From Escherichia coli (GTDB lineage Bacteria > Pseudomonadota > Gammaproteobacteria > Enterobacterales > Enterobacteriaceae), in NCBI RefSeq assembly GCF_003334785.1, contig NZ_QOWV01000062.1: 1,333 bases of DNA; one strand, written 5' to 3'. Below the pieces are notes generated by a model, which worked only from the letters and a program-made list of their open reading frames with translations, was not told where the DNA came from and made no database searches. Every line of letters begins with the position of its first letter. Position 1 is the first letter of the stretch. Below, piece after piece: positions 1 to 1,333 of this stretch. The translations under genes and the position numbers were made by a program.

Positions 1-138
1 AGGTGTTTGCTGTTGTTCAATGTATTGGCGGATGACGGATATTGGCGCACCTCCGCAGCTACTGGCAAAATAGCCAGGACTCCACAAAACGCCTTTGTAG
101 TAATACCTGACTGCAATATCTGGTCGATCTCGTCGCAG
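1..138 (-). pseudogene. tnpA: C-terminal remainder of tnpA, in the same frame directly downstream of the TGA at 139-141; open to the window edge
   Basis: Minus-strand codons immediately after the TGA, in the same frame, read LRRDRPDIAVRYYYKGVLWSPGYFASSCGGAPISVIRQYIEQQQTP. This resembles the conserved TnpA C-terminus (LWS.SYF...GG...RQYIEQQ), including the helix carrying the catalytic tyrosine (Tyr codon at 22-24, minus strand). There is no stop before position 1. Confidence 0.75.
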
Positions 139-426
139 TCACCTACCCGATACGCCTTTGAGGCTGTTTACCAGACTGGATATCGCCAGTTTGGGAGGAT
201 AGTTAATTAACAAATGGACGTGATCTGGTTCGCCATCCATTTCAACCAGTTCAGCTTCAAAATAAGCACATACATTTGAAAAGTAAGTGCGTAGTTTTTC
301 TGTCGCGTCATGGTCAAAAATCTGACGTCGGTATCTGGTGACAAAGACCAGGTGAACATGCATCAGGAAAACACAATGCCTTCCACGCCGGATATCGGTT
401 TCTTTTTTCACAGACCAAAGTATCAT
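139..426 (-). CDS. tnpA: IS200/IS605-family Y1 (HuH) transposase TnpA, 95-aa N-terminal segment ending at a premature in-frame TGA (139-141)
   Basis: ATG is the reverse complement of 424-426. The translation MILWSVKKETDIRRGRHCVFLMHVHLVFVTRYRRQIFDHD...PDHVHLLINYPPKLAISSLVNSLKGVSGR contains the His-hydrophobic-His motif (H-V-H, minus-strand codons at 214-222) and an upstream HVHLVFVTRYRR strand, both typical of IS200-type TnpA. At 95 aa the ORF is too short for an intact TnpA (about 130-155 aa). Confidence 0.85.
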   Translation of the reverse strand: MILWSVKKETDIRRGRHCVFLMHVHLVFVTRYRRQIFDHDATEKLRTYFSNVCAYFEAELVEMDGEPDHVHLLINYPPKLAISSLVNSLKGVSGR

Positions 427-433
427 TTGGCCT

Positions 434-1189
434 GTGAAACGACTACAAGCATTTAAATTCCAGTTAAGACCCGGTGGTCAACAGGAGCGTGAAATGAGGC
501 GCTTCGCAGGCGCATGTCGTTTCGTTTTCAATCGTGCTCTGGCACGTCAGAATGAGAATCATGAGGTCGGTAATAAATACATCCCTTACGGGAAAATGGC
601 TTCCTGGCTGGTTGAGTGGAAAAATGCCACTGAAACGCAATGGCTTAAAGATGCCCCGTCACAGCCATTGCAACAGTCACTGAAAGACCTTGAGCGGGCT
701 TACAAAAACTTCTTCCGGAAGCGGGCTGCTTTTCCCCGATTCAAAAAGCGGGGACAGAATGATGTATTCCGCTACCCGCAGGGCGTTAAGCTCGATCAGG
801 AAAACAGCCGTATTTTTCTGCCGAAACTGGGCTGGATGCGCTACCGGAACAGCCCTCAGGTCACGGGTGTTGTGAAAAATGTCACTGTCAGCCAGTCCTG
901 CGGTAAGTGGTACATCAGTATTCAGACAGAAAGTGAAGTATCAACTCCGGTTCACCCTTCAGCATCAATGGTCGGGCTGGATGCTGGCGTGGCTAAACTC
1001 GCCACGCTGTCAGATGGCACAGTCTTTGAGCCTGTAAACAGTTTTCAGAAAAACCAGAAGAAGCTGGCGAGACTTCAGCGACAGTTAAGCCGCAAGGTCA
1101 AATTCAGCGACTGCATTCCTGTATCGCAAATATCCGCAGGGACTACCTTCACAAAGTCACAACGACCGTCAGCAAAAACCACGCAATGA
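434..1189 (+). CDS. tnpB: TnpB (IS605 OrfB-type RNA-guided RuvC-like nuclease), N-terminal 251-aa segment in frame 2; the last ~25 residues are out-of-frame read-through ending at TGA 1187-1189
   Basis: GTG start at 434-436 with no ATG or other start upstream in frame. The N-terminus MKRLQAFKFQLRPGGQQEREMRRFAGACRFVFNRALA matches the conserved TnpB N-terminal pattern. Further conserved blocks follow: WLKDAPSQPLQQSLKDLERAYKNFF, FPRFKKRG, FRYPQG, VTVSQSCGKWYISI, the RuvC-I block VGLDAGVAKLATLSDG (Asp codon 980-982) and KLARLQRQLSRKVK. After about codon 1106-1108 the frame-2 translation (DCIPVSQISAGTTFTKSQRPSAKTTQ) loses all resemblance to TnpB. Confidence 0.88.
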   Translation: MKRLQAFKFQLRPGGQQEREMRRFAGACRFVFNRALARQNENHEVGNKYIPYGKMASWLVEWKNATETQWLKDAPSQPLQQSLKDLERAYKNFFRKRAAFPRFKKRGQNDVFRYPQGVKLDQENSRIFLPKLGWMRYRNSPQVTGVVKNVTVSQSCGKWYISIQTESEVSTPVHPSASMVGLDAGVAKLATLSDGTVFEPVNSFQKNQKKLARLQRQLSRKVKFSDCIPVSQISAGTTFTKSQRPSAKTTQ

Positions 1190-1333
1190 TAGTCATTGAG
1201 GATTTGAAGGTCAGCAACATGTCAAAGTCAGCAGCGGGTACGGTCAGCCAGCCGGGGCGCAATGTCCGGGCAAAATCAGGTTTAAACCGTTCGATACTGG
1301 ATCAGGGCTGGTATGAAATGCGCCGCCAGCTTG
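1102..1333 (+). pseudogene. tnpB: TnpB C-terminal continuation in frame 1, carrying the RuvC-II motif; runs off the window end
   Basis: Frame 1 is open from 1030 to the window end. From about 1102 it reads IQRLHSCIANIRRDYLHKVTTTVSKNHAMIVIEDLKVSNMSKSAAGTVSQPGRNVRAKSGLNRSILDQGWYEMRRQL. This matches the conserved TnpB segment (ARLH..IAN.R.DFLHK......N..IVIEDLNV.GM...........GW.EF.RQL as I recall it from ISDra2-type TnpB), with the RuvC-II Glu codon at 1198-1200. The start coordinate is approximate because the frame junction cannot be placed to the base. Confidence 0.78.

Follow-up and report, generated by a model that had tools for sequence, protein, structure and literature searches.

The end architecture of IS608, from Helicobacter pylori, comprises a TTAC target, a TCAA right end and subterminal hairpins. 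In six species including E. coli, the cleavage motifs reported most often for TnpB elements are TTAT and TCAA (PMC9956272), and a published guide table lists TTAT as the TAM of the IS609 TnpB (PMC12781874, Table S2). In homologous TnpB systems the 3′ end of tnpB together with the right end has been shown experimentally to be the omega RNA (PMC10055086, PMC10097598), and a donor-joint model has been proposed for TnpB (PMC10055086). In the ISDra2 TnpB structure, a pseudoknot arises from pairing between a 5′ segment and the nucleotides just ahead of the guide, and positions -20 to -17 form a UUUA tetraloop (PMC10097598). Gomes-Filho et al. (PMC4615843) describe sense transcripts over tnpB 3′ ends, including E. 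coli K-12 RNA-seq data as a bacterial example of such sotRNA-type transcripts, and tie a UUCA tetraloop motif of these transcripts to the HgcC family. A literature search on IS609 or insQ in connection with TnpB turned up no study devoted to the E. coli omega RNA.

The stretch of DNA analyzed here, 1,333 nucleotides long and called the window, holds the left ~78% (about three quarters) of an E. coli chromosomal insertion sequence, an IS609-like member of the IS200/IS605 family. The layout past its end is the standard, already described IS609-type arrangement and brings no new biology to the picture of TnpB and its omega RNA. For a very common E. coli element, the exact ends, the TTAT target motif, the donor joint and the guide are now fixed. 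The comparison also yields a secondary structure backed by covariation and, with it, a covariance model of the IS609-type omega RNA, an RNA that escapes Rfam 15 at its thresholds. This model could aid annotation of omega RNAs and of protein-less remnants in Enterobacterales.

The element and its chromosomal site

Many complete E. coli chromosomes match the window exactly, and a related copy is present in 5015 of 5426 complete genomes; the exact-match genomes listed have 2-4 element-matching places each. Sequence past the window was taken from exact-match E. coli genomes. Coordinates follow locus L001 of one of these, FDAARGOS_1248, in which the window position equals the L001 position minus 4000. 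The whole element spans window-equivalent -62 to 1651, with a prophage remnant (emrE-ybcL-ybcM) on one side and yedK on the other in the RefSeq annotation. RefSeq annotates a minus-strand IS200/IS605 tnpA with an 'internal stop' and a plus-strand 'RNA-guided endonuclease InsQ/TnpB family protein' that is 'frameshifted'. The element has the features of the IS605 group (IS609-like), namely tnpA, the tnpB domains, subterminal hairpins, a tetranucleotide target and a right-end cleavage motif. Its last 322 bases share 97.5% DNA identity with a K-12-type insQ copy (TOP10), and between the E. coli TnpB and the IS609 TnpB sequence given in PMC12781874 the identity is 85%.

Both reading frames are broken. 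Translation of tnpA gives the HUH-type motifs HVHLV and HVHLLI and a C-terminal RQYIEQQ, with a TGA stop (139-141) upstream of this catalytic-Tyr region; tnpA of the K-12 copy is likewise a nonsense pseudogene with its stop before the catalytic-Tyr region. An earlier note, made from the window alone, had described tnpB as broken, and alignment bears this out: a 34-bp deletion shifts the frame, and the shifted frame stops at 1187-1189 (ORF 434..1189). Beyond the deletion, positions 1105-1332 read in one frame as QRLHSCIANIRRDYLHKVTTTVSKNHAMIVIEDLKVSNMSK...DQGWYEMRRQL, corresponding to residues ~236-311 of the 402-aa TnpB that is intact in the allele at the same chromosomal site in CFSAN061772 (L002). 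As the note had it, the window ends within tnpB soon after RuvC-II (E267 in IEDLK at 1198-1200; end at codon ~311 of 402), and RuvC-III and the zinc finger lie outside, since cysteines C334/C337/C353/C356 and D363 map to window-equivalent ~1399-1488. Residue mapping shows that the intact allele keeps D183, E267, D363 and all four cysteines. Its Pfam matches (PF01385, 1.3e-34; PF07282, 5.8e-24; PF12323, 1.2e-13) comprise HTH_OrfB_IS605, OrfB_IS605 (residues 162-277) and Cas12f1-like TNB/zinc-ribbon (304-370).

Intact and deleted tnpB alleles both occur at the yedK site, in different strains, and from the deletion to past the stop codon they differ by one base, which is also the single scaffold difference. 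About 659 genomes have the element at yedK, and UMNK88 and FDAARGOS_1248 are examples of strains with the deleted allele. A 71-nt query across the deletion junction gave 4011 matches, a count that takes in both alleles because the two half-matches of intact copies were joined. Between the two genes, a 14-nt inverted repeat at 406-439 (TTTCACAGACCAAA and TTTGGCCTGTGAAA, 93% complementary, 6-nt loop) spans the divergent start codons of tnpA (426, minus) and tnpB (434, plus) and could be an operator or a translation-control hairpin. A link to flagellar genes was considered, given fliE and fliF 3-4 kb away and the TnpB-derived TldR regulators that occur near flagellin genes. It was dropped, as the prophage remnant lies between and no RuvC residue has been lost from the protein.

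The ends of the element are set by two kinds of comparison. On the left, other copies start at L001 3934, and the flank match of IS-free genomes ends at 3938; on the right, copies elsewhere cease matching at 5651 and genomes with yedK only begin at 5652. The 3′ tip reads ...GGATGTCAA, and the right end lies past the window, as the earlier note had anticipated, 318 bases downstream of it. The suggested extension of about 1 kb recovers the remaining tnpB, followed by the subterminal hairpin and the TCAA terminus, so that both the right-end hairpin and the cleavage motif can be named (Table 1). Truncation by another insertion, raised in the same note, does not apply, because tnpB runs uninterrupted to 1608 and the right end is present at 1651. 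Insertion is 3′ of TTAT, which stands at the left in both E. coli sites compared, and no target duplication is present, empty and occupied sites differing by exactly the element. The ends have no terminal inverted repeats. Each carries a related imperfect hairpin with a TTCA loop, and the hairpin cores form direct repeat D2.

Table 1. Features of the yedK-site element. Numbers are window positions or, outside 1-1,333, window equivalents; a slash within a sequence marks the insertion point or an element boundary.
Feature	Position or strain	Strand	Basis
Left end: TTAT target, then CCGGTGCGCC..., hairpin CCCCGTCC-TTCA-GGGCAGGG	27-66 bases upstream of window position 1 (L001 3934-3973)		
tnpA (Y1 HUH transposase) pseudogene	1..426	-	RefSeq 'internal stop', translation
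tnpB 5′ part to deletion junction, residues 1-~223, with RuvC-I D183 at ~980	434..1104	+	ORF list, intact-allele translation, residue mapping
34-bp deletion junction (CAGCAACAACTGGCAGAAGCAGAAACGCAAAATA), 4-bp CAGC microhomology	1104..1105	+	alignment of broken and intact alleles, same locus
tnpB past deletion, out of frame with the start codon, residues ~236-311; no guide-RNA sequence	1105..1333	+	
Rest of tnpB: CxxC...CxxC zinc finger, RuvC-III D363 (1486-1488), stop TGA (1606-1608)	1334-1608	+	
Predicted omega-RNA scaffold, seven helices	1497-1651	+	RNAalifold and manual extension, covariation
P1	1505-1510/1643-1648	+	
P2	1513-1518/1524-1529	+	
P3	1535-1539/1572-1576	+	
P4	1543-1550/1559-1565	+	
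P5	1583-1584/1617-1618	+	
P6	1592-1598/1603-1609	+	
P7	1621-1629/1634-1642	+	
Right-end hairpin CCTCGTCC-TTCA-GGGCGTGG, T·T mismatch 1624/1639, then AGGATG and terminal TCAA (1648-1651)	1621-1651	+	
Predicted guide CAAACAGGTTGAATTAACTC, antisense to the yedK 3′ end	1652-~1671	+	flank comparison
Empty site: GGCTTAT/CAAACAGGTTGAATTAACTCC (flank CAAACAGG...)	strains 04-00955, UTI89		
Occupied yedK site: GGCTTAT/CCGGTGCGCC...GGAGGATGTCAA/CAAACAGG			
K-12-type copy adjoining ydcO: TTTTTAT/CCGGTG...GGATGTCAA/TATCGG			

The TTAT target overlaps the stop codon of yedK, a convergent, SOS-associated gene. In the occupied allele, the TCA at the element's right tip serves as the yedK stop codon (L001 5648-5653, window-equivalent 1648-1653), and the gene gains one Cys codon (672 nt, against 669 nt in IS-free strains). 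The ydcO stop codon in K-12 likewise comes from the right tip of an element (L004 2819-2824). Since TTAT is the reverse complement of ATAA, which contains TAA, insertions at the stop codons of convergent genes may be favored or simply tolerated. The right-end tip and predicted guide can also pair with yedK coding sequence 25-40 nt downstream (L001 5640-5700, window-equivalent 1640-1700; -17 kcal/mol, z = -2.6, reached by 2 of 200 shuffles). Where empty sites read TTTTTAACAT, the occupied allele reads TTTTTGACAT, a difference that improves this pairing. The predicted pairing may sequester the guide in a read-through RNA, or it may be a product of chance.

Structure and covariation of the predicted guide-RNA scaffold

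The TnpB guide-RNA scaffold was expected by the earlier note to lie just beyond the window, with a covariance-model search as the means of finding it. Such a search places it at L001 5497-5651 with 181.3 bits, in a block that starts 164-172 nt after the window end; within the window, with filters off, no match exceeds 7 bits. Within the ~150-nt plus-strand block are the final 34 tnpB codons, the 43-nt tail between the tnpB stop and the element end, and the right-end hairpin, so that about 100 nt of it is coding. P2 and P4 are inside coding sequence, P6 runs across the stop codon into the non-coding tail, and P7 is the right-end hairpin. P1 joins a 5′-proximal segment to a six-nucleotide stretch at -9 to -4 relative to the guide.

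Evidence for this structure comes from relatives. A scan of one genome per species gave 51 loci encoding relatives of the TnpB, 29 of which align to the same terminus. These 29, from Enterobacterales to Zetaproteobacteria, all end in GGATGTCAA or a near variant, with TCAA at the right tip in nearly all (TTAA in L056), and their flanks are unrelated. When the final 260 nt are aligned, nucleotide conservation climbs steeply ~150 nt before the element end. Across 28 sequences, standard pairs fill 94.8% of cells, compared with 43-49% after sliding the partners by 1-3 columns. Two-sided changes affect 17 of 42 pairs (4-9 in the slid controls), and no shuffle out of 500 attained any of the observed values. 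The covariance model built on this alignment also matches ~17 more divergent copies absent from the building set, from Photorhabdus, K. pneumoniae, Cupriavidus, Conchiformibius and Methylococcaceae. With these added, compensatory changes appear in 27 of the 42 pairs and 93.8% of cells are paired (43-52% in slid controls), in an alignment that is model-fitted and so biased towards the structure. P1, P3 and P5 hardly vary among the closer relatives, and the few compensatory changes they gain come from that model-fitted alignment. P7 is also the DNA hairpin recognized by TnpA, so its covariation cannot tell an RNA role from a DNA role. The comparative structure was relied on because the single-sequence minimum-free-energy fold departs from it in the 5′ half.

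Rfam searches of the window alone returned chance-level matches. The extended locus gave three sub-threshold matches, all on the scaffold stretch, to HgcC (RF00062; 21.9 bits against a gathering threshold of 50), sot0042 (RF02656; 14.4 against 88) and RAGATH-18 (RF03064; 28.1 against 44.9). Membership in these families was rejected on the scores, and the resemblance served as a lead. A simple sigma-70 scan predicted no plus-strand promoter in the element, and a terminator scan predicted no terminator near the right end, results that carry no information on expression.

It is highly likely that the last ~150 nt of the element encode an omega RNA (reRNA) scaffold, with the DNA to the right of TCAA as the guide. 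The guide would derive from element-flanking DNA, as the earlier note proposed: TTAT followed by the predicted guide (CAAACAGGTTGAATT...) is exactly the sequence of the empty yedK site. A guide length of 16-20 nt and the 5′ end of the RNA are assumptions. If the block is transcribed and processed and the RNA is bound by TnpB, the donor-joint model would apply as follows. Excision by TnpA would rejoin the flanks as TTAT/CAAACAGG..., a scar-less donor joint at yedK, which TnpB with its omega RNA would recognize and cut at TTAT-CAAACAGGTTGAATT.... Repair of the cut joint from a sister copy would then re-copy the element, in line with a homing or retention model. At the occupied site the guide match is preceded by TCAA in place of TTAT, which would protect that site from cleavage. 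The predicted target of such TTAT-dependent interference is TTAT-CAAACAGGTTGAATTAAC.

State of the yedK-site copy

The scaffold and right end of this copy look structurally intact in sequence, the one exception being a T·T mismatch in the terminal hairpin (alignment pair 150/167), which among the 28 sequences occurs only in yedK-site copies. The mismatch changes the predicted stability of the right-end DNA hairpin from -7.7 to -4.6 kcal/mol, and the left-end hairpin is also weak by predicted DNA stability. The guide RNA is apparently still encoded and looks usable, only with TnpB from another copy, because tnpB is frameshifted, tnpA carries a nonsense codon and the hairpin is mismatched. With no active TnpA, it would also be a guide RNA without a substrate. 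That the scaffold persists as a dead relic, its RNA unmade or unusable, is judged a little more probable than its opposite. The 34-bp tnpB deletion, the tnpA stop ahead of the catalytic Tyr and the site-specific weakening of the terminal hairpin all point this way. So does the report in PMC10278001 that TnpB processes its own mRNA into omega RNA, from which it follows that the truncated TnpB encoded in cis could not make the RNA. Against this, every helix other than P7 is fully paired, with one pair better than in K-12, and the scaffold is one base away from the one in the intact yedK-site allele. Each of the exact-match genomes listed has 2-4 element places, and the K-12-type insQ is annotated as intact; its scaffold and that of this copy are ~97.5% identical, which makes loading in trans plausible, as proposed for PATE-encoded omega RNAs (PMC10055086). 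On balance of the sequence features, the yedK-site copy is most likely a structurally preserved relic rather than an element active in vivo.

Three further readings carry much less weight. The guide-RNA module might outlive its element, either as a trans-loaded RNP directed against IS-free yedK alleles or as an antisense or roadblock regulator of yedK; this is very improbable, and if true, an intact paralogous InsQ/TnpB and the yedK-copy RNA would bias inheritance of the locus after recombination or transfer. It is very improbable that the 150-nt block is conserved as DNA only, for the TnpB C terminus and the single-stranded right-end hairpin of TnpA, with no functional RNA. P7 is indeed the canonical right-end DNA hairpin, with a similar one at the left end, much of the block is coding and no promoter was predicted by the sigma-70 scan. 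Yet compensatory changes occur in P2, P4 and P6, 40-140 nt inside the end, where TnpA would have no call for them, as the IS608 enzyme requires just the subterminal hairpin and the cleavage tetranucleotide. P6 moreover crosses the stop codon into the non-coding tail, remnants that lack the ORF retain the whole block, and many of its pairs are G·U, possible on the plus strand only. Homologous TnpB systems experimentally use exactly this region as omega RNA (PMC10055086, PMC10097598). Least probable of all is co-option of the right end and a read-through transcript to affect yedK, by supplying its stop codon and an RNA antisense to its 3′ end. The tip-derived stop, the added Cys codon and the predicted tip-guide pairing would fit such a role, but the geometry follows automatically from insertion at TTAT within a stop codon, ydcO in K-12 shows the same arrangement, and inverted repeats of this size are common by chance in the region. 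A structurally preserved relic of an IS609-type element remains the preferred reading.

Relatives and described systems

Variation among relatives affects both the scaffold and the rest of the element. In L023-L030, L037, L038, L040 and L049 (Photorhabdus, K. pneumoniae and Pantoea), P1-P4 and the GGATGTCAA tip are kept, the P5/P6 region is replaced and the terminal hairpin is enlarged (loop ...GAGTCACGAAGTGCGAA...); this subgroup represents a variant scaffold in the same clade of TnpB. In Citrobacter amalonaticus, a second match to the scaffold model (L046 1870-2003, minus strand, 49 bits) lies 20 nt past a full copy, which suggests two elements or remnants arranged tail to tail. Two loci, L052 and L055, have kept the scaffold and lost most of tnpB. 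A miniature derivative of ~320 bp in the Arsenophonus endosymbiont of Aphis craccivora (L056 1425-1748) consists of a left end with hairpin and a tnpA 3′ stub, joined directly to a segment with the final ~200 nt of tnpB and the scaffold; its right tip is degenerate (GGATTTTAA). These three loci, with scaffold and right end but no intact tnpB, resemble PATE-like miniature IS200/IS605 derivatives, whereas the window's element is nearly full length and only its reading frames are broken.

The sotRNAs and HgcC (RF02656, RF00062) likewise overlap the tnpB 3′ end and have a terminal hairpin with a UUCA tetraloop. A weak full-length alignment to HgcC covers P3-P7, and the bit scores place the present scaffold outside both the curated HgcC and sot0042 families. 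The omega RNA of ISDra2 (Deinococcus radiodurans) also overlaps the tnpB 3′ end and the right end and takes its guide from the adjoining flank. Its pseudoknot resembles P1, and both RNAs have a UUYA tetraloop ~20 nt before the guide (the P7 UUCA is at -22 to -19), a helix correspondence by analogy only. The two differ in having no detectable sequence similarity, in TAM (TTAT here, TTGAT in ISDra2) and in scaffold length (~147-155 nt here, 116 nt resolved in ISDra2).

IS608 and the yedK copy share insertion 3′ of a tetranucleotide (TTAC and TTAT, respectively), a TCAA right end ~10 nt past an imperfect hairpin, and the lack of both terminal inverted repeats and target duplication. They differ in the target tetranucleotide and in the hairpin sequences. 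Closer still, IS609 (PMC12781874) has the same TTAT TAM and the similar TnpB noted above. The K-12 insQ copy next to ydcO has the same ends, TTAT/CCGGTG...GGATGTCAA/, and a nonsense tnpA; the present copy is set apart from it by its location at yedK, the 34-bp tnpB deletion and the T·T mismatch in the right-end hairpin.
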